A stretch of DNA of 64,000 bases from a virus. Positions within the stretch are counted from its first letter, which is position 1. Every line of letters begins with the position of its first letter. The notes beneath the pieces were generated by a model. The model was not told where the DNA came from. It was given only the letters and a program-made list of their open reading frames with translations, and did not search any database. The stretch is from IMG/VR virus record IMGVR_UViG_3300045988_143923, one strand, 5' to 3'. Position numbers and translations under genes: made by a program. This document shows, one piece after another, positions 44,735 through 64,000 of this stretch.

Positions 44735-45241
44735 GTGTTAGAAAAAGAATATGTCCTATACCATTCAAAGAAAAAGCGATATGTCGCTATTGACAGTAAA
44801 GCAAGACCGACATTTGTGTTCGATCCGGCTAAAGCAAAAGCATTCACGCACACGGCGGCTAAGAATTTTCTCCGAGTAAATGCCCGCGGCGAATTCAAAA
44901 ACTGTTGTATCGAGCCAGTAGATGAGAAAGTCAGACAGCAGCTTGTACCGATTGTGAACGCGGCGGTTTCCCAGAGTGATGTTCTGCAAAAGATCATCGA
45001 CGACCTTTCGATTACGGTGCATGACTGTGATCTAAAGATGGTTGACTTGTACCACTTCGCTGGAAACAATCCCAAACTTCCAGCGCATCGCGGCTACAAA
45101 ATCTATAAAAAACTGGCCGAGCTTGTGCAGGAACGAGCCAAAGCCAAGGCGCAAATCCAAGCCATTAAGTCAGCAATGACTTATGAATATGTACCATACA
45201 ACCCAAGAACCGAGCTTTATAACGAGCTCGACAAAATGTGA
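44735..45241 (+). CDS. hypothetical protein
   Basis: 168 aa from GTG 44735 (GGTGA upstream). Upstream in-frame codons overlap the suppressor tRNA. Confidence 0.55.
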   Translation: MLEKEYVLYHSKKKRYVAIDSKARPTFVFDPAKAKAFTHTAAKNFLRVNARGEFKNCCIEPVDEKVRQQLVPIVNAAVSQSDVLQKIIDDLSITVHDCDLKMVDLYHFAGNNPKLPAHRGYKIYKKLAELVQERAKAKAQIQAIKSAMTYEYVPYNPRTELYNELDKM

Positions 45242-45251
45242 GGTGATTAAA

Positions 45252-45797
45252 ATGCCAACCCTTGTCGTAAATTTGTTCGGCGGCCCCGGAAGCGGCAAAT
45301 CTACCGGTGCGGCGTATGTTTTCGCAAGATTGAAAATGCTGGGGTATAACGCTGAACTGGTAACCGAGTTTGCGAAAGACAAAACTTGGGAGAAAAACGA
45401 AACTGCTCTCGCCGCACAGGACTACATCACAGCAAAACAGCATTACAGACTACGGCGCTGTGCTGATCAGGTAGATGTCGTTATTACAGATTCTCCGTTG
45501 CTTCTTGGACTGGTTTATCTTAATAAAGATGACCCATGTTACGGAGAGGTGTACAAGCAGTACACGCTGAACATTTGGAACACCTACAACAATCTCAATT
45601 ACTTTCTGGCTCGAGTGAAGGAATACAATCCAGCAGGACGCAACCAAACAGAGGCTGAAGCTGATGGCGTCGCCGAGCTCATCCTGAAAACCTTGAACCA
45701 AAACGGCATCGAATTCCAATACACAACCGGAGATATGGTCGGCTATGACCGTATCGTAGAAGACGTAATCGACCAACTGAAGAAAAAAGGAGACTGA
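45252..45797 (+). CDS. P-loop NTPase (nucleotide kinase-like)
   Basis: 181 aa from ATG 45252; Walker A GGPGSGKST; Walker B-like VVITDSP. Confidence 0.6.
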   Translation: MPTLVVNLFGGPGSGKSTGAAYVFARLKMLGYNAELVTEFAKDKTWEKNETALAAQDYITAKQHYRLRRCADQVDVVITDSPLLLGLVYLNKDDPCYGEVYKQYTLNIWNTYNNLNYFLARVKEYNPAGRNQTEAEADGVAELILKTLNQNGIEFQYTTGDMVGYDRIVEDVIDQLKKKGD

Positions 45798-50458: not shown

Positions 50459-50586
50459 ATGGGCAAGTCCTCCCACGATTAAAATCGCGAGGCTCCTTGC
50501 CTAATGGAATGGAATCAGCTTGAACAGCAGGTAAAGCGGCTTGAGTTCAGCATTGAATTTCGTAGTAACAGATTCGGAGGTTGATT

Positions 50587-50694
50587 ATGAGAAGACAAAC
50601 GTTAAATCGACTGGGCGACATCGCCGCAGGGATGCTCTTCGGCGCAGTGATGCTCATTCCGATGTTCCTCTACGTTTGGGGTTACGGGGTATGA
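50587..50694 (+). CDS. 35-aa membrane peptide
   Basis: GGAGG RBS; hydrophobic core; ATGA-coupled to the next gene. Confidence 0.4.
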   Translation: MRRQTLNRLGDIAAGMLFGAVMLIPMFLYVWGYGV

Positions 50695-51542
50695 GTTCAT
50701 TTAAGGTTGGCGATCAGGTATGGGTTCCGCATGCGGTAGACATGGCGTGGGAACCCAGCCTTACGAAAGTAAAAAGAATCGAGCTCGACCCATATGGCAA
50801 CCCGCACTACGTTGTTGACTTACTGTTCCAGCGCTCTGCGCTCAGAGAGGAACTGCATCCAGAGGAATGTAAGTTCTTAGAGAACCGGGTTTTCGCTGAT
50901 TATCCGTCCTGTGAGAAGTTCGTCAAAGAGTATTACTACGACGGCTTGTGCCATGGATGTCATTACGAAGACCAGTGCGGTCACATCTGGATGTGTCAGC
51001 AATGCGAATACGCAAAGTGGACTTATGACAAATATGGTCACAAAGCCGCTCAGGTCTGCGCTCGAAACGAAATACAAGTATCTACAGATACGATTCGAAA
51101 CGGTCAAGAGTGTTGTAGATATTTTAAGCCGATTCTGCCGCAGAACAAAGAAACCTACCAGTCGTGGGAGCATTACGAAGATGTTCTTCGGAACTGCGAG
51201 TTCAACCAAAAATGTGAGCACCATAAGAACTCCGCTCACAAAACCTGTTCCTATGAGTATTGGCTAAGTATGTTGCTCCGCATTCCATGTTCCTTTGAGT
51301 ACAAGGATAGAAAAGTAAAGGCTGTCATCGTTCCAAGAAATCTCTGGATTGACCAGACATTTAAGAACGGCGACAACGTGCAGTGCCACAGCCTAATTTT
51401 TGAGCCAATTCTCACGAAGAAGGGTCTAAAGAAGAAAGGCATCGAAAATTATGAATCGTTCGAGTGCCTCAAAACAGTCAACATTTCGACCGGAGAAATC
51501 CAAGCTCCAGGCGAAATAACGAAAGATAAAAGTCAAGTTTGA
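50691..51542 (+). CDS. Cys/His-rich hypothetical protein
   Basis: 283 aa from ATG 50691; many CxxC/HxxC clusters. Confidence 0.6.
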   Translation: MSSFKVGDQVWVPHAVDMAWEPSLTKVKRIELDPYGNPHYVVDLLFQRSALREELHPEECKFLENRVFADYPSCEKFVKEYYYDGLCHGCHYEDQCGHIWMCQQCEYAKWTYDKYGHKAAQVCARNEIQVSTDTIRNGQECCRYFKPILPQNKETYQSWEHYEDVLRNCEFNQKCEHHKNSAHKTCSYEYWLSMLLRIPCSFEYKDRKVKAVIVPRNLWIDQTFKNGDNVQCHSLIFEPILTKKGLKKKGIENYESFECLKTVNISTGEIQAPGEITKDKSQV

Positions 51543-51608
51543 GATGAGAACGAGCTTACGAAACGGAGATTTGGCGAGTGAAACGAATGGTGAAGGACGG
51601 AGCGTGCA

Positions 51609-52232
51609 ATGAAAACTTACACGGAAGCAGAATTGAATGAAATTTTAAGAAATCATAAACATTGGATTCTGAAGAATATAGATGGTTGGAAAGAGATGAG
51701 AGCAGACTTGCGCGGAGCAAGCCTGTGTGGAGCAGACTTGCGCGGAGCAGACTTGCGCGGAGCAAACCTGCGCGAAGTGAAACTGTGCGGAGCAAACCTG
51801 TGCATAGCAGACCTGCGCAGAGCAGACCTGTGCGAAGCGGACCTGTACGGAGCGAACCTGTACGGAGCAGACCTGTGCGGAGCAAAAAATATACCTTTTA
51901 TTCCGATGGCTTGTCCAGATATAGGAACTTTTGTCTCATGGAAAAAGGCAAACGGACACATTGTTAAGTTGGAGATTCCAGAGGATGCCCGTCGAAGTTC
52001 CGCAACGGGAAGAAAGTGCCGATGCGATAAAGCGAAAGTGATAGAGATTCAGGAATTAGATGGTTCACCATCTGAATTAACGGAAGTCGCAAGTGGATAT
52101 GACCGCAATTTTGTTTACCGTGTAGGCGAAATTGCGGAAGAGCCTAAATACGATGAAGATCGTTGGAATGAATGTGCGCCGGGTATTCATTTTTTCATCA
52201 ATCGTCAGGAAGCAGTGGATTACAGTGGTTAA
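51609..52232 (+). CDS. pentapeptide-repeat protein
   Basis: 207 aa; ~14 tandem A(D/N)LxG/A-type pentapeptides ([33 protein letters not shown]...); C-terminal ...APGIHFF.NRQEA. Confidence 0.8.
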
Positions 52233-52279
52233 TAGAAATCACACGAAAACTTGTCGGTGCGAGGAATGGGAGGAAAACG

Positions 52280-52465
52280 ATGTGGAGTGAAAACTGTAAT
52301 TGGGCAAACAGGACAAAGGGAATTTGCCCATTCTCGCTGGCAGACAAGGATAAAAGATTTTCTGCCGAGTGTGTGCACGAGAACTGCGCGTGGTATTCCA
52401 CAGAACGCGGAGAATGCGCCGTAAAGGTTATTGCGAGACAGGAGGAAGACGATGGCGATAAGTAA
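52280..52465 (+). CDS. small Cys-rich protein
   Basis: 61 aa from ATG 52280 (RBS GGAGGAAA). Confidence 0.5.
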   Translation: MWSENCNWANRTKGICPFSLADKDKRFSAECVHENCAWYSTERGECAVKVIARQEEDDGDK

Positions 52466-52844
52466 GAAAATCCGCGAAGAAGTATACCGCAAATACGACG
52501 GGCACTGTGCTTATTGCGGCAGAGAGATTGCATACAAAGATATGCAAGTAGATCATTTTCTCCCACTGAGGGCATGGGGAATTGAAGATGCGGGGACAGA
52601 TGATATTTCGAATCTCATGCCGTCCTGTCGAATGTGCAATCATTACAAGCGAGCCCATACGCTGGAAACATTCCGGCGCTACATCGCGGAAATTCCGAGA
52701 AAGCTGCGCGAAAATTACATCTATAAGGTTGGCGTAGTTTACGGGAATGTGATCGAGAATGAAAAGCCGATTGAGTTTTACTTTGAGAAGCAGAAAAGTG
52801 CAACTCATTTGGGAAAGGGGTGCGAAAATGGGTGGATACATTAA
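52452..52844 (+). CDS. HNH endonuclease
   Basis: 130 aa; CAYCG....Y.DMQVDHF.P.......D..SNLMPSCRMCNHYK. Confidence 0.75.
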   Translation: MAISKKIREEVYRKYDGHCAYCGREIAYKDMQVDHFLPLRAWGIEDAGTDDISNLMPSCRMCNHYKRAHTLETFRRYIAEIPRKLRENYIYKVGVVYGNVIENEKPIEFYFEKQKSATHLGKGCENGWIH

Positions 52845-53100
52845 GCGGGATACTGCCATAAGAGCGGTGATGGCGGCGAAATGGGTGGACGGTTCCGACG
52901 GTGCCATGGCAATGGAAATTGTTGCCTCGCCGCCAGCCGCTGACGTTGTGTCGGTGGTACATGGGTGGTGGAACGCAGACGAAACTTGCTCATTGTGCGG
53001 AGAGAAGTCAACGGAAGGACTGGACGCAACGAAGTGGAACTATTGGCTCCCTAATTACTGCCCCAACTGCGGGGCTAAGATGGACGGAGGTGCAGAATAA
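52828..53100 (+). CDS. hypothetical zinc-ribbon protein (paralogue of the 53770 gene)
   Basis: 90 aa; shares ...AADV.PVVHG.W......C..CG.......YCPNCGAKMDGG with the 53770 gene. Confidence 0.6.
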   Translation: MGGYIKRDTAIRAVMAAKWVDGSDGAMAMEIVASPPAADVVSVVHGWWNADETCSLCGEKSTEGLDATKWNYWLPNYCPNCGAKMDGGAE

Positions 53101-53248
53101 TGCGGAAATCCGTGCAAGGACTGCATCTATTACCACAAAGAGAATAAAACTTGCCAGTCGAAGAAATGCGCTACTTATGGCGACGGAAAAGTATCTTGGA
53201 TTGATAGATTGTTTTGTTCTCCGTGCAAAAATTGAGGAGAGGCGGACA

Positions 53249-53419
53249 ATGGATTTAGCAAACAAGCATTTGGCGGCCGGGTTAATCTGTGAAAAGATGT
53301 TTGATCCGATTGAGACAACGTGCGATCTGTCACTTTTCTCTGCTGATGAGCGCTGTTTGATTGAGACAATCGTACAAAGCATTATGAAGAATATGGACGG
53401 AGGTGCAGACAATGGCTGA
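53249..53419 (+). CDS. 56-aa hypothetical protein
   Basis: GAGGAGAGG RBS upstream of ATG 53249. Confidence 0.5.
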   Translation: MDLANKHLAAGLICEKMFDPIETTCDLSLFSADERCLIETIVQSIMKNMDGGADNG

Positions 53420-53461
53420 GGTGATTGGGCAGAAAGTCGAAAATTTCCCAGTGGAACTTCG

Positions 53462-53617
53462 ATGGAACGCAGTTGTGTAATTGATAACGGCCTGTGGAGT
53501 TGTTATCTTTGTCCTACTTGCCAAGAAATTACCGCTTCGCTGAAATACGGCGATAAATATGGATTCGGTGATTTAAGAGAATACGCTTTGGAAAAGGAAG
53601 GTGCTAACAATGGCTGA
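53462..53617 (+). CDS. 51-aa zinc-ribbon protein
   Basis: MERSCVIDNGLWSCYLCPTCQE...; coupled to the next gene. Confidence 0.4.
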   Translation: MERSCVIDNGLWSCYLCPTCQEITASLKYGDKYGFGDLREYALEKEGANNG

Positions 53618-53777
53618 ACTGAAACCTTGCCCGTTCTGTGGGAGCAACAGAATCTCGGTGGAATACCTATATTTTAGACCTTATATCATTTGCGAGAAGT
53701 GCCACGCACAAATCCCTTGCTATAACACCTATCCAAAGGCAAAAGAAGCATGGAACAGGAGGGCAGACAATGCCTGA
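53610..53777 (+). CDS. Lar-family restriction-alleviation-like protein
   Basis: 55 aa; MAELKPCPFCGS......C..C......Y..KAKEAWNRRA matches the Lar pattern (CPFCG...C..C...a.eaWNrR). Confidence 0.55.
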   Translation: MAELKPCPFCGSNRISVEYLYFRPYIICEKCHAQIPCYNTYPKAKEAWNRRADNA

Positions 53778-54069
53778 ATACATTGAGCGCGCAGTTGCGT
53801 TTGATGCTATAACCGATCTTGCTGGGAAAGCCCCGACACGCTCGGCTTATGAAGCTGTATGGAAATCAGCGAAAGTGTTGAAGAAAATCCCTGCCGCCGA
53901 CGTTGCGCCGGTGGTGCATGGGAAGTGGATTCGACCGCACTGGAAAAACAGTAATTATTGTTGTGACTGTTCAGAGTGTGGCGGGGAAGCAATGCACAGA
54001 GAATATCAATGGAACAAAAAGGGTATTTACCCCATCTGCCCCAATTGCGGTGCAAAGATGGACGGATAG
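53770..54069 (+). CDS. hypothetical zinc-ribbon protein (TAG stop)
   Basis: 99 aa; paralogue of the 52828 gene. Confidence 0.6.
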   Translation: MPEYIERAVAFDAITDLAGKAPTRSAYEAVWKSAKVLKKIPAADVAPVVHGKWIRPHWKNSNYCCDCSECGGEAMHREYQWNKKGIYPICPNCGAKMDG

Positions 54070-54096
54070 TTGAACTTCGTGTGACGATTAAGGAAG

Positions 54097-54285
54097 ATGA
54101 AGAAAATGACAGTCAGCAATAAAAAATTATTAGAAGCTGTTGAAACCATTGGCACATTCTGCGAAGAACAATCATGTTGCCAGAACTGTATTTTGCCGCA
54201 GCTTTGTGCAGATGGTTGGAACTGCTGTATGAAGTTATGTATTGCTTCTGAATTATCAGAAGCAATGGCAAACGAGGACGGCTAA
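54097..54285 (+). CDS. small Cys-rich protein
   Basis: 62 aa (or 59 aa from ATG 54106, which has better RBS spacing). Confidence 0.5.
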   Translation: MKKMTVSNKKLLEAVETIGTFCEEQSCCQNCILPQLCADGWNCCMKLCIASELSEAMANEDG

Positions 54286-54506
54286 TGAAAAAATCAAAAG
54301 CGCTTGCGACATATGAAAGTATAAGTAAATACCGTCATATGTCAAGTATTGAATTTGTAGAAAAGGAATTGGGAGTCAAACTTCTTCCCTATCAAGCTGA
54401 ATTAACCACCAGACGATTAAGGAGAAACAAACTTGAATCCAGTATTCTATGCGCTTTGTATCATCGCCGGGGTGTTTATCTGGGCCTGCTGCGCTTTTAT
54501 GTTTAA
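54285..54506 (+). CDS. hypothetical protein (3' part doubtful)
   Basis: 73-aa ORF, GAGGA RBS; the C-terminal third overlaps a better-supported TTG-start gene in another frame. Confidence 0.35.
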   Translation: MKKSKALATYESISKYRHMSSIEFVEKELGVKLLPYQAELTTRRLRRNKLESSILCALYHRRGVYLGLLRFYV

Positions 54507-54609
54507 GAAGCTCGGCAGTGTTCTGACAAGTATCTTCGGCGATGCGATAAAGGAAATGTCCGATGAGGACGAAAATAACAAAAACGAAGGAGAAAACAAA
54601 CATGAGTAA
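54433..54609 (+). CDS. 58-aa membrane protein (TTG start)
   Basis: AAGGAGAA RBS 8 nt upstream of TTG; TM helix then an acidic tail. Confidence 0.45.
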   Translation: MNPVFYALCIIAGVFIWACCAFMFKKLGSVLTSIFGDAIKEMSDEDENNKNEGENKHE

Positions 54610-55462
54610 GGGTGCAGTAGGCGGCGTTGTTCTAGCGGCCGCTCTGGTGTTCGGCGGTATCGGAGCTTTCGTGTGTACAGAACGAATCCCGACCGGCTAC
54701 GTCGGTGTGGTTTACAGCATGAACGGCGGCGTACAGGACGAGGTTCTAACACAGGGTTTCCATGTCGTAAGTCCGACCAAGAAGGTAAAGAGGTTCACCG
54801 TCGGCAATGAGCAGCTCGTTCTGACCAAGGATTCTCGCGACGGCAGTGAGGGCGACGATTCCTTTAACGTAGCAACGGCAGATAACGCCAACATCAATAT
54901 CAGCTTCCAGATGTCCTACCGATTTAAGCAGGACGAGGTTGTTGACACCTATAAGAAGTTCCGCGGTATGGACGGCGAGGACATCGTGAACAACCGTGTC
55001 CGCACGATTCTGAAATCTAAGATTTCAGAGGTCACGACCGATTACACTATGATGGATATCTATTCCGGTGACCGTGCGAAGATCAACACCCAGCTGACAG
55101 AGGCTCTTTCCGAGAAACTCGGTGACGAGTTCGGTATTGATGTTATCGACGCCTCTATCATCGACGTACATCCCGATGAGCAGCTGCAGCAGACGATCAA
55201 TGACCGTGTGACGGCAATGCAGAAGAAGCAGCAGGCTGAAGCGGAGCAGGAAACCATCAAGGTACAGAACCAGACGAAGATTCTGGAAGCGCAGGCTGAC
55301 GCGCAGGCCAAGCAGATTGCAGCAGAGGCAGAAGCAAAGGCAAACTCGACGATTTCTGCTTCTCTGACCGATAAGCTGCTCAAGAAAATGGAAATGGAAG
55401 CCCGCGAGAAGCATGGCTGGGTCACCGTTCAGGGCGGCACTGTAGTCACGGACACCAAGTAA
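54602..55462 (+). CDS. SPFH/Band-7 (prohibitin/HflC-like) membrane protein
   Basis: 286 aa from ATG 54602; N-terminal TM helix, VP.GYVGVVY...G....VL..GFH.V.P, Ala/Gln/Glu-rich coiled coil. Confidence 0.75.
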   Translation: MSKGAVGGVVLAAALVFGGIGAFVCTERIPTGYVGVVYSMNGGVQDEVLTQGFHVVSPTKKVKRFTVGNEQLVLTKDSRDGSEGDDSFNVATADNANINISFQMSYRFKQDEVVDTYKKFRGMDGEDIVNNRVRTILKSKISEVTTDYTMMDIYSGDRAKINTQLTEALSEKLGDEFGIDVIDASIIDVHPDEQLQQTINDRVTAMQKKQQAEAEQETIKVQNQTKILEAQADAQAKQIAAEAEAKANSTISASLTDKLLKKMEMEAREKHGWVTVQGGTVVTDTK

Positions 55463-55490
55463 AAATTTTTTTGAAAAATTTTCAGATTTC

Positions 55491-55519
55491 GCGTCCCAAA
55501 AATCGATTTTTTGTATAGT
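55491..55519 (+). promoter_or_regulatory. phage promoter class GCGTCC-N17-TATAGT (copy C)
   Basis: TTCGCGTCCCAAAAATCGATTTTTTGTATAGTAGTA upstream of the second tRNA array. Confidence 0.5.
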
Positions 55520-55599
55520 AGTATATGTAGACAAAAAACGATAACAGTGTGGCGACGGCGGGAAAGACCGCTGACAGCCGGGAAAGACCGGCGATATAT

Positions 55600-55712
55600 G
55601 AGGAGTGTCCGGTGACAGAGTTATGGTGCGACGGGCGGGCGCACGAACAGCAAATACATACAAAAAACTTTCTGCAAAAAAGTTTCTCGCGGTTCGACTC
55701 CGCGGCTCCTCA
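55600..55712 (+). tRNA. tRNA-Cys(GCA)-like gene with a ~40-nt expansion of the D region
   Basis: Acceptor GAGGAGT/GCTCCTC, anticodon arm ACTTT-CTGCAAA-AAAGT, T arm CGCGG-TTCGACT-CCGCG; 60 nt (including hairpin GTGCG...CGCAC) where ~20 nt of D arm is expected; no CCA. Confidence 0.4.
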
Positions 55713-55733
55713 AAATTCCGCCAACTAAATATG

Positions 55734-55848
55734 TCCGGTGTAGCTCAATAGGCAGAGCGCGAAACATGTGGACTGATAAGTCCGCTGACAGCAATTTTCT
55801 TTTAGATTTGTAATCTCGATGCTGTCGGTTCGAATCCGGCCTCCGGGC
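55734..55848 (+). tRNA. tRNA-Thr(TGT)-like gene with a 42-nt insertion 5' of the anticodon loop
   Basis: Acceptor TCCGGTG/CTCCGGG (one mismatch), D arm GCTC-AATAGGCA-GAGC, 5' anticodon-stem CGAAA, insert 55765-55806, loop TTTGTAA, TCTCG, T arm GTCGG-TTCGAAT-CCGGC. Confidence 0.4.
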
Positions 55849-55969
55849 ACCTTCTTCTAAGTCACCGAGAAGTAAAAGAGAAAAAGGCGACTGAGCCGTG
55901 GGTTGACAGCCTACGCAGTTCTGAATCATCAGTTCTTTCGTCTGACAGCTCGGAAAAGACGAGCAACAA

Positions 55970-56046
55970 CGAGGTGTGGCTCAGCTTGGTAGAGCGCTTG
56001 CTTTGGGAGCAAGATGCCGCAGGTTCAAATCCTGTCACCTCGACCA
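55970..56046 (+). tRNA. tRNA-Pro (TGG)
   Basis: Acceptor CGAGGTG/CACCTCG, anticodon arm CTTGC-TTTGGGA-GCAAG, T arm GCAGG-TTCAAAT-CCTGT, CCA. Confidence 0.85.
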
Positions 56047-56304
56047 ATCCTCACCGTGCGGAGGAAATTATTTGTCCGTGAGCAAACTCTACTCACACAC
56101 ACCGCTTGGCACGGCAAGCGAACCCTCTCGAGAGCTGCTGAACGCATTTGGAGAAAATGTGCAAGGCAAAGGGTGGCGAACCAGCCTGGAACTTACCCTC
56201 TCTACAACTGGTTCGGAAAAACCGTTTCACTCTTCTTCACGGGCGTAAGGTAAGCCGAAGTAAGAAGAAAACCGGCGACGAGGTTGCAAACTCCCGCCGG
56301 ATAT
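56047..56304 (+). ncRNA. 258-nt ORF-free structured spacer within the tRNA array
   Basis: Consecutive helices: CCTC/GAGG, GTGAG/CTCAC, CGCTTG/CAAGCG, CTCTCGAGAG, TCTTCTT/AAGAAGA, CCGGCG/CGCCGG. Confidence 0.35.
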
Positions 56305-56378
56305 GCTCCAGTAGTTTAATGGCAGAGCATCAGATTTCCAATCTGATAGTGCGAGTTCGATCCTCGTCTGGAGCTCCA
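56305..56378 (+). tRNA. tRNA-Gly (TCC)
   Basis: Acceptor GCTCCAG/CTGGAGC, anticodon arm TCAGA-TTTCCAA-TCTGA, T arm CGAGT-TCGATCC-TCG region, CCA. Confidence 0.85.
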
Positions 56379-56381
56379 TAT

Positions 56382-56468
56382 GCCGGTGTGCCGGAATAGG
56401 CAGACGGGAGCGTCTCAAAAACGTCCGCTCAACAGAGCATCGGGGTTCAAGTCCCCGCATCGGCACCA
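56382..56468 (+). tRNA. tRNA-Leu (CAA)
   Basis: Class II; acceptor GCCGGTG/CATCGGC, loop CTCAAAA, variable helix GCTC/GAGC, T arm CGGGG-TTCAAGT-CCCCG, A73, CCA. Confidence 0.8.
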
Positions 56469-56471
56469 AAT

Positions 56472-56557
56472 GCGATTGTGGCGGAATTGGCAGACGCAGC
56501 GGATTTAAGCTCCGCTGGGAGATTCCCGTGAGAGTTCGAGCCTCTCCAGTCGCACCA
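56472..56557 (+). tRNA. tRNA-Leu (TAA)
   Basis: Class II; acceptor GCGATTG/CAGTCGC, anticodon arm GCGGA-TTTAAGC-TCCGC, variable helix GGGA/TCCC, A73, CCA. Confidence 0.85.
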
Positions 56558-56564
56558 TCAATAT

Positions 56565-56694
56565 ACGGCGGTAGCAAAGCGGTAATGCGTCATCCATAAA
56601 AAATGCGAGCTGACAAGTTCACTGACAGCAATCTTAACAGTAAAAAGATATGCCATGATGATAATCGCTGGTTCGACTCCAGCCCGCCGTACCA
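56565..56694 (+). tRNA. tRNA-Gly(GCC)-like gene with a 55-nt insertion 5' of the anticodon loop
   Basis: Perfect acceptor ACGGCGG/CCGCCGT, D arm GCA-AAGCGGTAA-TGC, anticodon stem TCATC...GATGA separated by the insert (~56595-56649) plus loop (C)TGCCAT, T arm GCTGG-TTCGACT-CCAGC, CCA. Confidence 0.45.
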
Positions 56695-56863
56695 CAGGGA
56701 CACTCACAGCAAAATTACAGGCTTTGACTTTTAATCAAAATACCTTTGTGTCCCGCATCCCTCCAAAGGGCGCGTACAGCCAATAAAAACTATCTCCATA
56801 AAACACTGGCAGGCTGATTCCCTGCAATGCGCCCTGTGGAATTAAAACAAGGAGGAAAAGAAA

Positions 56864-58417
56864 ATGGATTTTACAACCGCAATGGCTAACACGCTGAACG
56901 AAGATTACAACGTCAGCGTAACCGAGAACGGCGCTGTCGGTTACAGAACGACCGGCAAAGCGCTGCTCGACCTGAATTTCTCCGTAGCCTCGCTCCGCAG
57001 CGCAAGCGAAGCTGAGATCGTGAGTAAGTTCGTCAAGGCATTCTTCGAGGACAAAATGGCCGCGATGAAGTGGCTGTTCTTCGCCCGAGATGTTCGCGGT
57101 GGACTCGGCGAGCGCCGATTGTTCCGCACCGTAATGAAGTATCTGGCGGACAACCTGCCGGAATACGTCCGGCCAGTAATCGAGTTGATTGCAGAATACG
57201 GTCGCTATGATGACCTGCTGTGCCTGTTGGATACAGATTTGGAAGTAAAAGTTTTGGACTACATCTACTTTCAGTTCAATTATGACATCCATCGTTATGA
57301 AGAAGGTAATCCGATCTCACTGCTAGCAAAATGGCTTCCGTCTCCGGGCGCTTCTTCTTACAATTCCCGTCGATATGCAAAGATTATTTGTAATCGACTG
57401 AACTTCACTCAGAAGTATTACCGCCAGACTCTTTCCAAACTACGCGGCTATCTCGATGTAGTCGAGAAGAAAATGTCCGCAAAGCAGTGGGGCGAGATCA
57501 AATATGAAGCAGTCCCGTCCCGCGCAAATCTCATTTATAATAAGGCGTTTCTGAGGAACGATGAGGAGCGCCGCCGTGCTTATCTGGAAAGCCTCGCTAA
57601 GGGCGAAACCAAGATAAACGCAGGCACGCTGTTCCCGCACGAGATCGTCCATAAGTATGGCAACTCTGGATGGAATACAATCACCGAGTGTAACGAAACG
57701 CTCGAACAACTGTGGAAGGCTCTGCCTGATACGGTGAACGGCAACGGGAACACCATTGTCGTAGCGGACGGCAGCGGCAGTATGACCTGCGGCGTAGACC
57801 CGCACAGCAGCGTAACTGCACTGGACGTAGCAAATGCACTTGCGATTTACTTCGCGGAGCATTCCTCCGGCCAGTTCAAGGACAAGTACATCACGTTTTC
57901 CACTCGTCCTCGGCTGGTTGATTTCTCCAAAGCAAAGAACCTGCGTGAGAAGCTGTTAATCGCTAAGCAGCATAACGAGATGGGAAATACCAACATTGAA
58001 GCTGTTTTTAACCTGATTTTGACCACAGCGGTCAACAATCGAATGAAGCAGGAAGATATGCCGCAGAATATTCTCATCATCTCCGATATGGAGTTCGACT
58101 CCTGTGCAACTTGCGGCAGTCAAACGGGTTACTGGAGCCGAAAGCGGCCGGATTCCCGTCTGTTTAACGTGATTCGTCAGAAATATGAAGCAGCCGGTTA
58201 TAAACTGCCGCGCCTCGTGTTCTGGAATGTCAACAGCCGCACCGGAACCATTCCGGTTAAGGAAAACGATCTCGGTGTTGCTCTGGTCAGCGGCTTCAGC
58301 CAGAATGTAGCTTCTATGGTGATGAGCGGTAAGCTCGACCCGTATGAATGCCTGATGGAAACGCTAAACAGTAAGAGATATGATCCAATCGCGAAAGCAC
58401 TGGAGGGGATTGCGTGA
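56864..58417 (+). CDS. DUF2828-like (TROVE-like) + vWA domain protein
   Basis: 517 aa; N-terminal ...TENGAVGY.TTGKALLDLNF........WLFFARDVRGGLGERRLFR...; MIDAS motif VVADGSGSMT. Confidence 0.65.
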   Translation: MDFTTAMANTLNEDYNVSVTENGAVGYRTTGKALLDLNFSVASLRSASEAEIVSKFVKAFFEDKMAAMKWLFFARDVRGGLGERRLFRTVMKYLADNLPEYVRPVIELIAEYGRYDDLLCLLDTDLEVKVLDYIYFQFNYDIHRYEEGNPISLLAKWLPSPGASSYNSRRYAKIICNRLNFTQKYYRQTLSKLRGYLDVVEKKMSAKQWGEIKYEAVPSRANLIYNKAFLRNDEERRRAYLESLAKGETKINAGTLFPHEIVHKYGNSGWNTITECNETLEQLWKALPDTVNGNGNTIVVADGSGSMTCGVDPHSSVTALDVANALAIYFAEHSSGQFKDKYITFSTRPRLVDFSKAKNLREKLLIAKQHNEMGNTNIEAVFNLILTTAVNNRMKQEDMPQNILIISDMEFDSCATCGSQTGYWSRKRPDSRLFNVIRQKYEAAGYKLPRLVFWNVNSRTGTIPVKENDLGVALVSGFSQNVASMVMSGKLDPYECLMETLNSKRYDPIAKALEGIA

Positions 58418-58465
58418 TACTTCTTCTGTACTTTCTGATTTGTATCATTGTCAGCGGAGCAAATT

Positions 58466-58600
58466 ATGCCTTTTCTCAAAACCCCGAAGAGCGAAGGCTT
58501 CGATCCTGATGAATTCGATGTACTCATGGTTGTCGCAGGGCTTTTATGGCCTCTTGTTGTCGGAATGGCCATTGCATATGGTCTATTCAAAGACAATTGA
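58466..58600 (+). CDS. 44-aa membrane peptide
   Basis: ATG 58466; hydrophobic VLMVVAGLLWPLVVGMAIAYGLF; weak RBS. Confidence 0.3.
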   Translation: MPFLKTPKSEGFDPDEFDVLMVVAGLLWPLVVGMAIAYGLFKDN

Positions 58601-58625
58601 TCGATGGGAAACGAAAGGAGAACAA

Positions 58626-59174
58626 ATGAAAGTTTTAGTAGTAGTGGATATGCAGAATGACTTCATCGATGGCGCTCTCGGTACGCCGGAAGCAAAAGCT
58701 ATTGTTTCAAAGGTAGTCGAAAAAATCAAAGCTGTCGGTGATGACGATATTATTTGCGTAACAAAGGACACACATTACGCGGATTATCTCGATACACAAG
58801 AGGGGAAATTGCTCCCGATTCCTCACTGCCTTGTGGAAACGCACGGTTGGGAGATCGAGCAGACTGTTCAGAATGAATTAGACAAACGAGGGGAAACTCT
58901 CGTATTCGAGAAAGAAACGTTCGGTTCTGTTGATCTTGGTGACGCACTGGATTTGGTTTGGATCGACAATCTGGATGAAATTATTTTGGTTGGCCTTTGC
59001 ACAGACATTTGCGTTATTTCCAACGCTTTGCTTATCAAAGCATATCTCCCAGAGGTAAAGATCACAGTAGATGCGTCCTGCTGTGCCGGAACAACGCCTG
59101 AAAACCATAAGAATGCGCTGGCAGCCATGAAAATGTGCCAGATTAACATCGAAAACGAGGAGGAAGCCGTATGA
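58626..59174 (+). CDS. isochorismatase-family hydrolase, nicotinamidase (PncA)-like
   Basis: 182 aa from ATG 58626 (RBS AAAGGAGAA); VVVDMQNDF, ...KD.H, LVGLCTDICV catalytic Cys motif. Confidence 0.7.
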   Translation: MKVLVVVDMQNDFIDGALGTPEAKAIVSKVVEKIKAVGDDDIICVTKDTHYADYLDTQEGKLLPIPHCLVETHGWEIEQTVQNELDKRGETLVFEKETFGSVDLGDALDLVWIDNLDEIILVGLCTDICVISNALLIKAYLPEVKITVDASCCAGTTPENHKNALAAMKMCQINIENEEEAV

Positions 59175-59965
59175 TTTCCGTAAATGGGGACCCGATTGAT
59201 TTTACCTGTTTTCCAGACGGAACGACTTCGTTTCGTTACGATCCAAGCTTGGAAGAAGAGGAGTTTGTCATCCAGTGGAAGTATGATGGTGATCATGAGT
59301 GCATTTTGCTGTGGTATCTGGTTCATCGTATACGAAGCTATGACTCTCGTGCTGAGATTATACTTCAGCTTCCGTATATTCCCAACGCGAGAATGGATCG
59401 TGTTAAAAGCTCTGACGAAGTTTTCACATTAAAATACTTTGCAGAGTTTATCAATAGTCTGTCTTTTGATTTTGTGGTTGTTCGTGATCCACATTCTAAT
59501 GTAGCCCCAGCATTGCTCAATAACGTTAAGGTTCTCGATGCTAGATATTATATCATGCAAGCAATCGCGAATTGTATGACATGCGGAGAGGATTTGCTGC
59601 TCTGTTACCCTGATGAAGGAGCTGCAAAACGTTACACTGAGCTTCTGAAGCGCGAGCACGTTTTCTGTATCAAACACCGCGACTGGCGCACGGGGAATAT
59701 CGAGGGGTTGGAGCTGACCAACCCGGAACTTGTCGAAGGACGCAACGTTCTGATTGTAGATGACATCTGCTCTCGCGGCGGTACGTTCACTCATACAGCC
59801 AAAGCACTCAGAGAAGCCGGGGCGAAGGATATTTTCCTTTATATCACCCATTGCGAAAACACCATCAAAAAGGGCACAATTCTGACTGACGGCCTGATTA
59901 AGCACGTTTACACCACCGGAAGCATTTATCGCGGCAACCACGAAATGATTACGGTTCTGTTCTGA
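59171..59965 (+). CDS. ribose-phosphate pyrophosphokinase (Prs)-like protein; NARP1 Adps candidate
   Basis: 264 aa; PRPP/phosphoribosyltransferase loop VLIVDDICSRGGT; Prs-like two-domain length; coupled to the NAMPT-like gene. Confidence 0.65.
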   Translation: MISVNGDPIDFTCFPDGTTSFRYDPSLEEEEFVIQWKYDGDHECILLWYLVHRIRSYDSRAEIILQLPYIPNARMDRVKSSDEVFTLKYFAEFINSLSFDFVVVRDPHSNVAPALLNNVKVLDARYYIMQAIANCMTCGEDLLLCYPDEGAAKRYTELLKREHVFCIKHRDWRTGNIEGLELTNPELVEGRNVLIVDDICSRGGTFTHTAKALREAGAKDIFLYITHCENTIKKGTILTDGLIKHVYTTGSIYRGNHEMITVLF

Positions 59966-59980
59966 TAAGGAGACGAAACA

Positions 59981-61474
59981 ATGATTGACTACAATCCGCT
60001 GCTGTGCTTGGACTTCTACAAGACCTGCCACGCCGAACAGTATCCGAAGGGACTGACCCGTATGGTCAGCTATTATACGCCGCGAATGTCTCGTCTGGCA
60101 GACACAGATAAGGTAACGATGTTCGGCTTGCAAGCGTTCATCAAGGAATACCTGATTGACGGCTTTAACAAATATTTTTTCGAGCGAGATTTCGAAAAGG
60201 AAATCCTCCCGGAGTACAAGCGTGTGCTTGGCGCAACAATCGGAACTTCCGGCGTGGGCAAAGAGCGGCTGCTGAAGCTGCATAATCTCGGCTTTCTGCC
60301 TCTGATAATCAAGGCAGTTCCGGAAGGAACACGGACTAACATTCATGTGCCGCAGATCGAGATTACCAATACGTTGCCATCTTTTGTCTGGTTGGTAAAC
60401 AGCATTGAAACCATGCTGTCCTGCACAATGTGGCACACGCAGGTTTCTGCGGAGGTTGGCTATCGGTATCGCCAGATCGTCAACAAGTACGCAGACCTGA
60501 CCTGCGACGACGATGTTGACCGCGCCCGACTTCTCGGTGATTTCTCGATGAGAGGACAGGAGAGCGTCGAGAGCGCAACAAAGAGCTCGGCAGCGTTTCT
60601 GTTGAGTTTTCTCAATACAGCGACTGTCCCGGCTATTCTTTGGTTGGAACGAAATTATAACTGCAGCTGCGATCAGGAACCGGTTGGATATGGTGGTATT
60701 TCGACCGAACACAGCGTAATGTGCTCCAATGCCGCAGTTGACGGTGATGAGATTACACATCTGCGCCGACTGCTCACCGAGATTTATCCGCATAGCAGTT
60801 TCTCCGTTGTGTCTGACAGCTACGACTATTGGAATTTAGTTGATAAGCTGTTGCCGCAGCTCAAGAACGAAATCCTTGAACACAATGGAACTCTTTCTAT
60901 TCGCGGTGACAGCGGTGATCCGGTCGAGGTTGTCACCCAGACAGTATTTCATCTCTGGAATATTTTTGGCGGCACGAGAAACAGCAAGGGATTCAAAGTT
61001 CTGAATCCGCATATCAAGGCGCTGTACGGAGACAGCATTACGCCGCAGCGTTGCGAAAAGATTTACTCAATCCTGAAAGAGAATGGGTTCGCAATTAACA
61101 ACGTGGCTTTGGGTGTCGGCTCCTTCTCCATGGAATGTCTGGAGACGATTGACGAAAATGGAAATGTCCAGTATAACCCGTATACGAGAGACACGTTCGG
61201 CATCGCGGTCAAGGCAACCTACGCAGAGGATGAGAACGGGCCGATTATGATTTTCAAAAATCCAAAGACGGACACCGGCCATTTTAAGAAGTCCCAGCGC
61301 GGATGCTGTATCGTGCGGGAGAACGACGGCGAGTATTCTTACGAGGACGGACACACCTTTAAGGAAACATACGACCTTGATAATGAGATGGCACCTGTAT
61401 TCATCCACGGTAATATGGTCAATGAATACACGCTGGCAGAGGTGCGCGACAGATTGCACGGAGGTAAATTCTAA
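59981..61474 (+). CDS. NAMPT-family phosphoribosyltransferase (NadV/Namat-like)
   Basis: 497 aa; N-terminal NPLLCLDFYKTCHAEQYP (compare N..L.TDSYK..H..QYP), ...RGDSGDP..., ...GVGSF... Confidence 0.75.
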   Translation: MIDYNPLLCLDFYKTCHAEQYPKGLTRMVSYYTPRMSRLADTDKVTMFGLQAFIKEYLIDGFNKYFFERDFEKEILPEYKRVLGATIGTSGVGKERLLKLHNLGFLPLIIKAVPEGTRTNIHVPQIEITNTLPSFVWLVNSIETMLSCTMWHTQVSAEVGYRYRQIVNKYADLTCDDDVDRARLLGDFSMRGQESVESATKSSAAFLLSFLNTATVPAILWLERNYNCSCDQEPVGYGGISTEHSVMCSNAAVDGDEITHLRRLLTEIYPHSSFSVVSDSYDYWNLVDKLLPQLKNEILEHNGTLSIRGDSGDPVEVVTQTVFHLWNIFGGTRNSKGFKVLNPHIKALYGDSITPQRCEKIYSILKENGFAINNVALGVGSFSMECLETIDENGNVQYNPYTRDTFGIAVKATYAEDENGPIMIFKNPKTDTGHFKKSQRGCCIVRENDGEYSYEDGHTFKETYDLDNEMAPVFIHGNMVNEYTLAEVRDRLHGGKF

Positions 61475-62226
61475 TGGGAAACGCAAAGACACTGAAAAAT
61501 CATATTGTCCAGTGGATTATGAACTACTTCGAAGATAACGGCAAAGACTGTTACGCCGTTGTTGGCATCTCTGGAGGGAAGGACAGCAGCGTTGTTGCCG
61601 CTCTCTGCGCTGAGGCACTCGGCAAAGACCGTGTTGTCGGCGTGCTGATGCCGAATGACAAACAGTCAGACATCGAAGATTCGTACCGGTTGGTTGAGGC
61701 TCTCGGAATCAAAAGTGTCGAAATCAATGTCGGCGACGCTTATTCTATGATGCTCAGCGAAGGTTCGCACGAACTACCTATCAGCAAGCAGGCGGAGGTA
61801 AATCTGGCACCCAGACTTCGAATGGCGGCTCTGTACATGGTAGCGCAGTCTTTAGAGCACGGCGGCCGCGTAGCTAACACCTGCAATTATTCCGAAGACT
61901 ACGTTGGTTACTCCACCAAGTACGGTGACAGCGCCGGTGATTTCAGTCCACTGTCCGGCTTGCTTGTCAGCGATGTCGTAGCGGTCGGTCACGAGCTGCC
62001 GATCCCTGCCGATCTGGTGGACAAGACTCCATCTGACGGACTTTGCGGAAAGTCTGACGAGTCAAATCTCGGTTTTACTTACGCTCAGTTGGAGAAGCAT
62101 ATCGTAGATGGCAGCTGTGGTGATCGAGAGATCGACAAGAAGATTTGCAATCTGCATTATAAGAACCTTCACAAGATTACGCCCATGCCGTATTTCAAAA
62201 AGCAGTTGCCCCTGGAAGGCTTCTAA
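61474..62226 (+). CDS. nadE: NH3-dependent NAD+ synthetase
   Basis: 250 aa; PP-loop GISGGKDSSVVAAL; ...GTxNxSE-like NTCNYSEDYVGYSTKYGD. Confidence 0.8.
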   Translation: MGNAKTLKNHIVQWIMNYFEDNGKDCYAVVGISGGKDSSVVAALCAEALGKDRVVGVLMPNDKQSDIEDSYRLVEALGIKSVEINVGDAYSMMLSEGSHELPISKQAEVNLAPRLRMAALYMVAQSLEHGGRVANTCNYSEDYVGYSTKYGDSAGDFSPLSGLLVSDVVAVGHELPIPADLVDKTPSDGLCGKSDESNLGFTYAQLEKHIVDGSCGDREIDKKICNLHYKNLHKITPMPYFKKQLPLEGF

Positions 62227-62264
62227 GCTACAGGTTTGCGGTCAACCTTAAACCGCACTTTTAC

Positions 62265-62335
62265 GGGTGAGTGGTGAACAGGAAACACCGGAGAGTAATA
62301 TCATCGAAAAGCAGGTTCGAATCCTGCCTCACCCG
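62265..62335 (+). ncRNA. tRNA-like element with degenerate anticodon arm
   Basis: Acceptor GGGTGAG/CTCACCC, D arm GTG-AACAGGAAA-CAC, T arm GCAGG-TTCGAAT-CCTGC; the 17 nt in the anticodon-arm position (GGAGAGTAATATCATCG) do not pair; no CCA. Confidence 0.4.
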
Positions 62336-62437
62336 AATCGCACCGCAGATCAACAAGGCTTGCAAGCACCTGCGGTGAACAGTCCGTGCCTGCGAGGTGT
62401 CGTCGGACTATAATTCAGAAAAAACGCCTCGCTACAT

Positions 62438-62505
62438 TCCTCGGGACAGGTTTCGGCCGTAATTCGCGATATCGGCCTCGAGTTCGAATCTCGACCGGGG
62501 AGCCA
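62438..62505 (+). ncRNA. 68-nt tRNA-like element without a recognisable D arm
   Basis: Acceptor TCCTCGG/CCGGGGA, T arm TCGAG-TTCGAAT-CTCGA, G73, CCA; middle is GGCCG...CGGCC with a 13-nt loop. Confidence 0.4.
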
Positions 62506-62508
62506 CAT

Positions 62509-62598
62509 GGCACAGTAAGCCTAAAGGTAAGGCAGTAGTCTTGAAAACTACCAGTAACCCGTAAGGGTGTGAGATTTCGAAATTCTCCTGTGCCGCCA
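62509..62598 (+). tRNA. tRNA-Ser (TGA)
   Basis: Class II; acceptor GGCACAG/CTGTGCC, anticodon arm GTAGT-CTTGAAA-ACTAC, variable helix ACCC/GGGT, G73, CCA; T stem has a T-T closing pair. Confidence 0.8.
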
Positions 62599-62706
62599 TC
62601 GTGTTGGTGCAACGCACGCCTCACCGGCACAAATGTACTTAGAGCGGTGTTCTCTCATGTCACGTCCGTTAAGCGTGACAACTATTGTCGAAAAGAGGTG
62701 ATTCTT

Positions 62707-63132
62707 TTGTACGACGTATTGACAATCTCAGATTACATTATCAGGCGTTGCTCTAACGAGGGGTACACTGTCAGTAATCTGAAGCTACAGAAACTGCTGT
62801 ACTTCGTTCAAGCCGAGTTCCTTGTCGTTACTGGGAAGCCATGCTTTCGAGAGAAGATTGTCGCTTGGGATTTTGGACCCGTAATTCCTGAAGTATATCA
62901 CGAGTTTTGCATATTTGGTTCCGCTCATATTCCGGTAGGTGTAGCTTCAGCGCCGGGTTTGTCTAAAGAAACGGCAGAACTTATCGACGGTATCGTCTTT
63001 ACATGTCTGCCATTCAGCTCGTCACAGCTTGTCGAAATCACTCAGCATCAAAACCCGTGGATCTGTGCTTATGCAAAGGGCTACGGCACAGAGATTACGA
63101 ATGAGTCCATCCTCAACTTTTTCGCGGAATAA
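62707..63132 (+). CDS. DUF4065 (Panacea/SocA-like) antitoxin-domain protein
   Basis: ~141 aa from TTG 62707; ...NLKLQKLLYFVQAEFLV.TGKP.F.EKIVAWDFGPVIPEVYHEF... is the DUF4065 core pattern. Confidence 0.6.
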   Translation: MYDVLTISDYIIRRCSNEGYTVSNLKLQKLLYFVQAEFLVVTGKPCFREKIVAWDFGPVIPEVYHEFCIFGSAHIPVGVASAPGLSKETAELIDGIVFTCLPFSSSQLVEITQHQNPWICAYAKGYGTEITNESILNFFAE

Positions 63133-63135
63133 TAT

Positions 63136-63203
63136 CTCCCTCCATGTACGGCGAGCGCAATCCGCGGCACGATGCTCGGCCGGTTCGATTCCGGCGAGGG
63201 AGA
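63136..63203 (+). ncRNA. 68-nt tRNA-like element with compressed D/anticodon region
   Basis: Acceptor CTCCCTC/GAGGGAG, T arm GCCGG-TTCGATT-CCGGC; only 36 nt between them and no clean cloverleaf; no CCA. Confidence 0.35.
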
Positions 63204-63857
63204 ATCGGCTGACCTTTCCTGTCGATTCAGAAAAGAGGAGTGGCACAACCTTGCCGGTATTTTGGTTAAACCGTGGTTAGGGCGACAAGCCCAAATAATC
63301 CTCTGTGCTGCTCGCACAAGACATCACCTTAAGCGTTCAAGGAGATGGAGAAGAGCAAGCATTAAAGTGTCTAAGATTGAAAACGGGAGCGTTTATAGGG
63401 AACGGGAGTTGAACGCCTTCTGTTCCCGAGTTACTGGTTGCAAAGTGTCGGGCACGCCAGCAAAATGAGCATCGTCTGCAAGCGATACCCCTCGCAAACA
63501 GGTGATTAGACGGACGCACACGGCGGATTCCGCGCTCGACCAGAAAACGGCCGCACAGCGGTGTGATTGGTTGAGAACAAGCCCGCAAATTGGGGGAGAG
63601 TTTAGATGTCCGAGGGTTTGCTCAGATCTTCGGATGTCAAACTCGCATTAAGTTATATTGCGACAGTTGCCGGAATAGACCGGTGGCTTAAACTTTATGG
63701 CAAAAAAGAGAGGCGGTGATTTTAGTGGGAGTAAAGCAGAACGTAAAGCATTTCTTTAAGGGGCTGTACGAGGCAAATCTCGCGGCTCAAAAGGAAGTCC
63801 GTGGATTTAGCTATTTTGACATTCGATAAACATCGCCCGCGTTTCGCGGGCCTATAT
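63204..63857 (+). ncRNA. ~650-nt ORF-free, helix-dense RNA candidate (ROOL/GOLLD-like context)
   Basis: No convincing ORF; long-range and pseudoknot-type pairings (GCGTTCAA...GGGAAC...TTGAACGC...GTTCCC; AGAGGA/TCCTCT; GAGTTT/AAACTC; CACAC/GTGTG) plus many local hairpins; flanked by tRNA and tRNA-like genes. Confidence 0.45.
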
Positions 63858-63935
63858 GCTGGCATGGCGCAATTGGTAGCGCATCTGAGTTGTAATCAGA
63901 GGGTTTTCTCGGTTCGATTCCGAGTGCCAGCTCCA
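63858..63935 (+). tRNA. tRNA-Thr (TGT)
   Basis: Acceptor GCTGGCA/TGCCAGC, anticodon arm TCTGA-GTTGTAA-TCAGA, T arm CTCGG-TTCGATT-CCGAG, CCA. Confidence 0.85.
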
Positions 63936-63963
63936 TAATAAAACCATTGTTTGAGGTGAAATT

Positions 63964-64000
63964 ATGATCGGCGCAATTATCGGTGATATTGTCGGCTCAC
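63964..64000 (+). CDS. 5' end of a gene; N-terminus resembles ADP-ribosylglycohydrolase family (truncated by window)
   Basis: GAGGTGA RBS; MIGAIIGDIVGS... resembles the common ARH N-terminus; only 12 codons visible. Confidence 0.35.
   Translation, partial: MIGAIIGDIVGS

Follow-up and report, generated by a model that had tools for sequence, protein, structure and literature searches.

Depletion of nicotinamide adenine dinucleotide (NAD+) is among the commonest antiviral strategies of bacteria. Phages answer it by restoring the cofactor, and to our knowledge the described pathways (NARP1, NARP1-AP, NARP2 and NARP3) all proceed via amidated intermediates. Here we analyze a 64,000-nucleotide stretch of viral DNA (IMG/VR record IMGVR_UViG_3300045988_143923; hereafter the window), which carries a four-gene operon for a nicotinamidase-like enzyme (PncA), an Adps-type kinase, a Namat-type transferase and an NAD synthetase (NadE). 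In our judgment this operon probably represents a deamidated form of NARP1 that would run through nicotinate. More broadly we propose, with only a little more confidence than doubt, that such operons encode a fourth phage route of NAD+ reconstitution. In it, a nicotinate ADP-ribose transferase would join ADP-ribose pyrophosphate (ADPR-PP) to nicotinate, giving nicotinic acid adenine dinucleotide (NaAD) in one step and bypassing nicotinic acid mononucleotide (NaMN) and NadD, within a conserved PncA-Adps-transferase-NadE operon that often includes a Macro gene and is common in phages and prophages of gut Clostridia.

The closest described system is NARP1, in which a gene of the Adps clade adjoins one of the Namat clade in a single operon (Osterman et al., 2024, bioRxiv 10.1101/2024.02.11.579819; 9w5w/9w5x, PMC12774641). 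As many as 97% of Adps-clade genes are neighbors of a Namat gene (Osterman et al., 2024), and RyDEP feeds ADP-ribose (ADPR) into the pathway. NARP1-AP (Adps, the Macro phosphatase Adpp and Namat) extends the same operon by an accessory enzyme, whose Macro domain is an ADPR-1''-phosphate phosphatase that processes ADPR derivatives (bioRxiv 10.64898/2026.01.28.702374). The window operon shares with NARP1 the adjoining Adps-clade and Namat-clade genes and their location in a phage, and with NARP1-AP the addition of accessory enzymes. Unlike NARP1-AP, however, it lacks a Macro gene and extends the pathway on its pyridine side, with PncA and NadE, rather than on the ADPR side. It differs from NARP1 in carrying a nicotinamidase and an NAD synthetase, in several residues of the transferase pocket, in an insertion within the adenine clamp of the window's clade, and in the predicted product of the transferase, which would be NaAD instead of NAD+. 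As in Preiss-Handler salvage (PncA, PncB, NadD and NadE), the first enzyme would be a nicotinamidase, the last an NH3-dependent NAD synthetase, and NaAD the penultimate compound. Neither a PncB-type nicotinate phosphoribosyltransferase (NAPRT) nor NadD was found in the module or in the region tiled with Pfam profiles (window 4.7-64 kb and 7.5 kb downstream of it, in a genome of ~125 kb), and the middle steps are proposed to be taken over by Adps and a nicotinate-using Namat that bypass NaMN. NARP2 (Nampt and Nmnat, phage KVP40) and NARP3 (PnuC and NadR; PMC13464706) are likewise phage-encoded means of restoring NAD+ against NAD+-depleting defenses. In contrast to NARP2, an Adps gene is present here and the transferase falls in the Adps-associated Namat clade, not in that of the KVP40 Nampt; PnuC, NadR and Nmnat were not found here.

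The four genes lie on the plus strand and form one tight operon, as is evident from their junctions. The gene for the PncA-like hydrolase of the isochorismatase family (58626..59174, 182 amino acids; PF00857, Isochorismatase, 3e-24; phrog_19305) overlaps that for the Adps-type Prs homolog (59171..59965, 264 amino acids; phrog_619, 4e-73, with a weak Prs-type match) in the sequence ATGA. The gene for the Namat-clade transferase (59981..61474, 497 amino acids; NAMPT_N and NAPRTase domains; phrog_448, 2e-150) follows after a gap of 15 nt that includes AAGGAG, and its stop codon overlaps the start codon of the gene for the NH3-dependent NAD synthetase NadE (61474..62226, 250 amino acids; PF02540, NAD_synthase, 1.5e-49, 168.7 bits) as TAATG. 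An AAGGAG Shine-Dalgarno sequence is located 6 nt 5′ of the PncA ATG. A scan of 56.5-64 kb for promoters and terminators (10 vs. 8.3 ± 2.6 and 14 vs. 7.9 ± 3.1, respectively) yielded no convincing site bounding the operon. A preliminary description, made from the letters of the window, had listed these four open reading frames (ORFs), all of which are present at the coordinates it gave, and its family assignments (isochorismatase, Prs-like, NAMPT/NAPRTase and NAD_synthase) agree with the profile matches. It had also called the Prs-like and NAMPT-like genes translationally coupled; they are indeed adjacent, but the 15-nt gap between them is the loosest of the three junctions.

By sequence comparison, the transferase is a member of the Namat clade and not of the Nampt/NARP2 clade. 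Its best matches in the PDB are the SPbetaL1 Namat structures (9w5x/9w5w, 395 bits), and it scores 303 bits against 9ke8, compared with 168 bits for the bacterial Nampt of Xcc and 142 bits for human NAMPT. The nicotinamide pocket of SPbetaL1 Namat consists of Phe189, Arg192, Asp215, Ala242, Arg306, Asp13' and Tyr15'; Asp215 hydrogen-bonds the amide of nicotinamide, and its replacement by alanine (D215A) lowers nicotinamide-dependent NAD+ synthesis 8.1-fold (PMC12774641). In the window transferase this aspartate is replaced by alanine (A214) and Ala242 by serine (S241), while the remaining five of the seven pocket residues are kept. The remodeled pocket comprises A214, S241, N212, G186, G238 and S306. 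The catalytic core shared with NARP1 (F, S, R, H, R, D and TRD) is conserved, the retained residues being F188, S189, R191, H244, R308, D310, D351 and T402-R403-D404. According to papers citing Khan et al. (2006), the equivalent Asp219 of human NAMPT sets specificity, D219S switching the substrate and D219A being inactive (PMC4919578, PMC7096376). Three further human NAMPT changes, H191R, G217R and A244M, are listed among inhibitor-binding mutants (PMC4919578).

The two substitutions are not peculiar to the window. In an alignment of the 150 top-ranking representatives of 50%-identity clusters, drawn from a library of 1.84 billion proteins, the residue pair at positions 215 and 242 was D/A in 90, A/S in 35, S/S in 19, V/S in one and mixed in about five. 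The two positions switch together almost perfectly, and the variant type, including a sister subclass with serine in place of Asp215, makes up about a third of these nearest representatives. After these two, class specificity is highest at positions 187 (His to Gly, Ser or Cys), 239 (Ser to Gly), 304 and 213 (Gly to Lys, Asn or Arg), which fall in four pocket motifs (HDFSMRG, GTD, SIPATEH and VIRPD). We take positions 187, 213, 239 and 304 to correspond to H191, G217, S241 and I309 of human NAMPT, which presumably line the nicotinamide/inhibitor tunnel. In a neighbor-joining tree built with columns 215 and 242 masked, a single split holds all 48 full-length variants together with one divergent outlier, which indicates that the variant class arose once.

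The state of the pocket tracks the presence of PncA and NadE near-perfectly. When 80 IMG/VR loci were sampled by means of a generic family pattern, 76 proved to be D/A and four A/S. None of the 76 D/A loci had PncA (0/76) or NadE (0/76), although 71 had Adps. By contrast, PncA, Adps and NadE were all present in 7/7 A/S loci, namely the four of the generic sample and three reference loci, L128 being among the seven. Eighty IMG/VR loci with transferases 60-100% identical to that of the window were all A/S, and except in L045 and L046, which have no NadE in the flank, the four genes occur together wherever the contig allows. Nineteen loci of the S/S subclass have PncA in every case and NadE in 16, the other three having truncated flanks. 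A further 28 loci in Clostridia genomes were all A/S, with the full gene set where untruncated, except L195. When 138 complete modules were dereplicated and compared, three gene orders predominated (PncA-Adps-Namat-NadE in 51, PncA-Adps-Namat-Macro-NadE in 45 and Adps-Namat-Macro-NadE-PncA in 40, with two singletons), and the link of PncA and NadE to the variant Namat held through all three and down to ~32% identity, in phage phAss-1. Habitat alone cannot explain this link, because canonical D/A loci without PncA or NadE (L153, L162 and L166) share the same human-gut dataset. Such flanking genes are unusual among phages, as the preliminary description had it: among 50,697 GenBank phage records, Adps-like sequences are present in 1,540 and Namat/Nampt-like ones in 2,043, but homologs of this PncA in only 11 and of this NadE in only 47. 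The PncA matches for the most part, and the best NadE matches, come from human-gut contigs and phAss-1, and the other NadE records mainly from marine and other phages.

An alternative that the preliminary description had itself raised is that two salvage routes run side by side, a canonical nicotinamide-using NARP1 and an unrelated part in which PncA and NadE do no more than strengthen the opening and closing steps of the host Preiss-Handler pathway. Each route is plausible by itself, and NadE does occur alone in other phages, such as cyanophages and pelagiphages, which are absent among the listed matches to the Adps-like and Namat-like proteins of the window. However, parallel routes would leave unexplained why the amide-binding Asp and other pocket residues have changed in precisely the lineage that bears PncA and NadE and in no other. 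The D215A change impairs nicotinamide use in SPbetaL1 Namat, and with a phage nicotinamidase encoded in the same operon, Namat would face competition for nicotinamide. Moreover, the four genes overlap or are tightly spaced and have stayed together through rearrangements. We therefore regard parallel routes as distinctly unlikely, and the change at Asp215 and Ala242 that accompanies PncA and NadE supports, without proving, the deamidated route that the preliminary description had put forward.

In the deamidated pathway, of which we infer the catalytic activities, the base preference and the benefit to the phage from sequence, a host NADase defense would cleave NAD+ to ADPR and nicotinamide, and the PncA-like enzyme would convert nicotinamide to nicotinate and NH3. 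Adps would make ADPR-PP and AMP from ADPR and ATP. The variant Namat, whose pocket no longer has the amide-binding Asp but has acquired Ser, Asn or Lys, would then combine ADPR-PP with nicotinate to yield NaAD and pyrophosphate, and NadE would convert NaAD, ATP and NH3 to NAD+. Several benefits may be imagined. Being charged, nicotinate would stay inside the cell, whereas nicotinamide is able to leave by diffusion; the phage would not depend on nicotinamide that is consumed by the host PncA; it could draw on the abundant nicotinate of the gut; and the last step would be driven by ATP and irreversible.

Several points weigh against this reading, of which the first concern the pyridine base and the breadth of the association. 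The base preference of the variant Namat is deduced from two residues and the gene context. Ser and Thr residues expected in NAPRT (in GTSN and GTQAHE) at the two switch positions could not be confirmed by alignment and were not used as evidence; with E. coli PncB, hhalign aligned only the C-terminal half, at 14% probability, and pairwise local alignments were inconsistent. The deamidated route would cost one ATP more than canonical NARP1, and any advantage that it confers is speculative. Since the variant class is monophyletic, its association with PncA and NadE reflects one origin and long retention, not repeated gains. Lastly, a few variant loci (L045/L046/L240, L195 and L252) lack NadE or PncA in the flank examined.

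Other such points concern the ribosyl donor. Namat selects ADPR-PP by means of an adenine clamp formed by the SCL loop (Arg40) and the SCH motif GS-X-Phi-X-Phi-X-Phi-TRD (Phe392 and Tyr396), in which X is aromatic and the SCL stacking residue is R, K or Y; a double mutant at Arg40 and Phe392 of SPbetaL1 Namat has the largest effect, 16.6-fold (PMC12774641). The same enzyme also accepts phosphoribosyl pyrophosphate (PRPP) in vitro (PMC12774641), and some NaMN may thus be formed. In the window transferase, the SCH motif is interrupted by a 14-amino-acid insertion (GSFSMECLETIDENGNVQYNPYTRD), and throughout its clade a variable insertion of 10-30 amino acids follows GSFSM(E/Q)C and the position of Tyr396 is not conserved. 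ADPR-PP use is therefore firmer for members of the phAss-1 type and less certain for the clade of the window. These features would suit an alternative in which the operon boosts Preiss-Handler salvage via PRPP: the Prs-like enzyme would make PRPP, the transferase NaMN, the host NadD would convert NaMN to NaAD and the phage NadE would complete NAD+, with PncA feeding in nicotinate. The altered pocket would serve nicotinate with either donor, and the transferase exceeds the cutoff of the NCBIfam model NF006629, 'nicotinate phosphoribosyltransferase' (445.7 vs. 405 bits). Clostridial hosts, moreover, have NadD.

The kinase, however, argues against PRPP. Judged by score comparison, it belongs to the phage Adps clade and not to cellular Prs, with 156 bits against SPbetaL1 Adps (38% identity) and 48 bits against E. 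coli Prs. Its median score against the Adps proteins of 71 canonical NARP1 loci is 110 bits, its match to TIGR01251 (110.7 bits) falls just below the 113-bit cutoff, and its best PDB match to a Prs reaches only 67.8 bits. The preliminary description had taken the Prs-like and NAMPT-like genes to be the NARP1 pair, and with scores of 156 bits to SPbetaL1 Adps and 395 bits to SPbetaL1 Namat this identification is supported. The near-universal adjacency of Adps-clade genes to Namat, and a transferase much nearer to Namat than to Nampt, speak for the same donor, as does the clamp itself: the window transferase retains R38 and F382 (R40 and F392 of SPbetaL1), and the clamp is fully canonical in several members of the variant class (phAss-1, L128, P0142, P0144, P0157, P0246 and P0247), the SCH motif reading GAYTYQYVTRD in phAss-1 and GSFTYQYNTRD in L128. 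A Macro-domain gene, expected to act on ADPR derivatives and thus sensible only with ADPR as input, lies within 89 of the 138 variant modules (14 of the 76 canonical loci have one). No NMNAT-type Pfam domain was present among the called genes of the tiled region, and none was present among the gene families recurring around the module. Because the clamp is kept in variant members, R38 and F382 are retained, Macro genes occur in the modules and no NMNAT-type domain was seen, ADPR-PP is the more likely donor for the variant transferase, and salvage by way of PRPP appears unlikely.

The last points of this kind concern NadE. The protein is well above the cutoff of TIGR00552 (169.1 vs. 63.65 bits), carries the P-loop SGGKDS and consists of a single domain without a glutaminase domain. 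Its best PDB match is the NadE of the archaeon Pyrococcus horikoshii (2E18, 113.6 bits), and the second is 3FIU of Francisella tularensis (100.4 bits). The latter is an NMN synthetase, while archaeal single-domain NadE enzymes of the 2E18 type are strictly NaAD-specific, ammonia-dependent NAD synthetases (PMC3376133). By its sequence, NadE of the window may act on NaAD or on NaMN. A different chemistry may thus be considered, for example that the NadE homolog is an NMN synthetase converting NaMN to nicotinamide mononucleotide (NMN), or that another pyridine base is used, with an intermediate or product that is neither NaAD nor plain NAD+. The ranking of the Francisella enzyme as second-best solved relative, and a pocket remodeled at six or more positions, beyond the two that switch together, would be consistent with such a view. 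On the other hand, a route via NMN needs an NMN adenylyltransferase, none of which was seen in the module or the tiled window, the best match of NadE is NaAD-specific, and the residues of PncA fit a nicotinamidase. We consider a chemistry of this sort very improbable.

Those residues are as follows. The best solved relative of the PncA-like protein is the P. horikoshii nicotinamidase (1ILW/1IM5), to whose catalytic triad D8, K96 and C129 align. The triad is invariant in 140 unique homologs from variant loci, and so are the metal-site residues D48, H50 and H67 (KDTH ... IPHC). An Asp-x-His ... His metal site binds the pyridine nitrogen and separates nicotinamidases from other enzymes of the isochorismatase family. 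The protein scores below the cutoff of the NCBIfam PncA equivalog model (NF008623, 28.5 vs. 174 bits), and is at best a divergent member of the nicotinamidases.

Among described phages, a parallel is offered by phAss-1 (OQ749652.1; PMC10607447), a phage of the human gut for which a Clostridia host is predicted. It has a PncA-Adps-Namat(A/S)-x-NadE module, flanked like that of the window by tRNA arrays, but its proteins are only 32-43% identical to those of the window and its SCH clamp is canonical. The record labels the first three proteins 'nicotinamidase', 'ribose-phosphate pyrophosphokinase' and 'nicotinamide phosphoribosyltransferase', and NadE as hypothetical; the NAD genes are not discussed in the paper (PMC10607447). 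Our literature search, which left most subscription journals outside its scope, found no paper linking NARP1 with a nicotinamidase or NadE, and nicotinate is not mentioned in the NARP1 preprint (bioRxiv 10.1101/2024.02.11.579819) or in the Namat structure paper (PMC12774641). If the deamidated route is real, it would involve a new reaction (ADPR-PP + nicotinate to NaAD) and a natural switch of base specificity in the NAMPT/Namat fold with a two-residue signature, Asp/Ala vs. Ala or Ser/Ser, and it would mean that phages can divert salvage into the deamidated branch. The signature would allow annotators to tell the two types of pathway apart and could correct labels such as 'nicotinamide phosphoribosyltransferase'. 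It would also predict gut phages that resist Thoeris-, SIR2- or DSR-type defenses despite scarce nicotinamide.

The module is widespread in SPbeta-like phages and prophages of gut Clostridia and in gut metagenomes. The public assembly collection has 153 indexed blocks that contain the exact window protein, and 3,374 sequences belong to one related cluster at 90% identity; as our close-homolog search returned only a clade of 73-95% identity, it serves to gauge abundance and not diversity. The minus-strand structural genes of the window (~1-20000) match the Pfam families YonB, YonD_N, YonG, YonJ_N, YomU_Tube, YomV and YomW, and on account of these Yon and Yom families we assign the phage to the SPbeta-like group, to which SPbetaL1, the canonical NARP1 reference, also belongs. 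Genes for a PemK-family toxin, a RepA_N replication initiator and a tyrosine integrase stand in a row (37886-40451, plus strand), which fits a temperate or plasmid-like lifestyle. The exact PncA protein is also found on a metagenome scaffold of 286,747 bp, and a 471-kb contig of NCBI assembly GCA_003480615.1 encodes an identical copy of one tail protein. Modules closely related to that of the window occur in metagenome-assembled genomes of Clostridia and in the isolates Oscillospiraceae bacterium 50-58 (JBCLQE010000001.1) and Clostridium sp. HCP1S3_C6 (NZ_JBQHRN010000026.1). Given the integrase and SPbeta-like genes, the long scaffold and these relatives, the element is a temperate phage or prophage of gut Clostridia.

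An ADP-ribosylglycohydrolase (ARH) gene begins near the end of the window (63964..64000, plus strand; 12 codons, MIGAIIGDIVGS). The public contig ERZ1744957 NODE_34 (L003; 125,740 bp) is identical to window positions 49981-64000, and on it the gene is complete (13984-14775, 263 amino acids; PF03747, 4e-32), bearing out the ADP-ribosylglycohydrolase-like start that had been reported at 63964. The same description had suggested that this glycohydrolase could supply free ADPR or destroy ADPR-derived immune signals. That link is weak, since ARH is confined to the subclade of the window, where it never accompanies an in-module Macro gene; we rejected it as a core member of the module, and it is possibly an accessory gene. 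ARH and a PARG-type macro protein lie 2-7 kb downstream of the window operon. The latter, of the microbial type, is at L003 18398-19195 (window-equivalent 68378-69175; PF10021; TIGR02452, 196 bits) and is present in only some of otherwise near-identical contigs. A crAss001_48-domain protein (PF21825, 'Sequestin' in precomputed hits) is encoded at L003 15443-15955 (window-equivalent 65423-65935). In most related modules a Macro gene stands between Namat and NadE (e.g., L009 7567-8190), with a DarG-type ADP-ribosyl glycohydrolase as its best NCBIfam match; the phAss-1 gene at that position has a weak HAD-phosphatase match.

Upstream of the operon, a tRNA cluster (55970-56557) precedes a gene for a DUF2828/DUF7788 protein of 517 amino acids with a VWA-like domain (56864-58417, plus strand; phrog_850, 'RNA-binding protein'). 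After it, just 5′ of PncA, comes a 44-amino-acid ORF with a hydrophobic stretch (58486-58620, plus strand), which is called in every related contig. In related contigs, Metallophos and RNA-ligase genes follow downstream, and upstream there is a gene for a KTI12/AAA_33 kinase; together with DUF2828 this neighborhood suggests an RNA-repair set. Directly after NadE there is a tRNA-like gene (62264-62336, plus strand), for which ARAGORN reads an anticodon of two bases ('aa') and assigns no amino acid, and between NadE and ARH an antitoxin-like protein with a SocA/Panacea domain is encoded (62707-63132, plus strand; 141 amino acids from the likely start). ARAGORN predicted 13 tRNA genes in the window, including one of the amber-suppressor type with a CTA anticodon (44615-44708, plus strand; labeled tRNA-Pyl). 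The related phage phAss-1 has a tRNA-Sup-CTA and uses genetic code 15, in which TAG is recoded. When ORFs of the window were re-called with TAG as a sense codon, its real genes were neither merged nor extended, and we rejected TAG recoding, which is irrelevant to the operon. A P-loop protein of 204 amino acids (45183-45797, plus strand) matches PF13521 (AAA_28, 1e-11), a family that presumably includes the ribosylnicotinamide-kinase domain of NadR, and has no NCBIfam match.

Many other representatives of the transferase clusters are 550-1100 amino acids long. In the canonical Namat representatives P0151, P0183 and P0189, insertions of ~300 amino acids lie inside the SCH motif (GS[FY]-C...SHN-TYQ.NTRD). 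Each insertion begins at a Cys and closes with His-Asn ahead of a Thr, and from such sequence features they look like inteins that split the adenine clamp.

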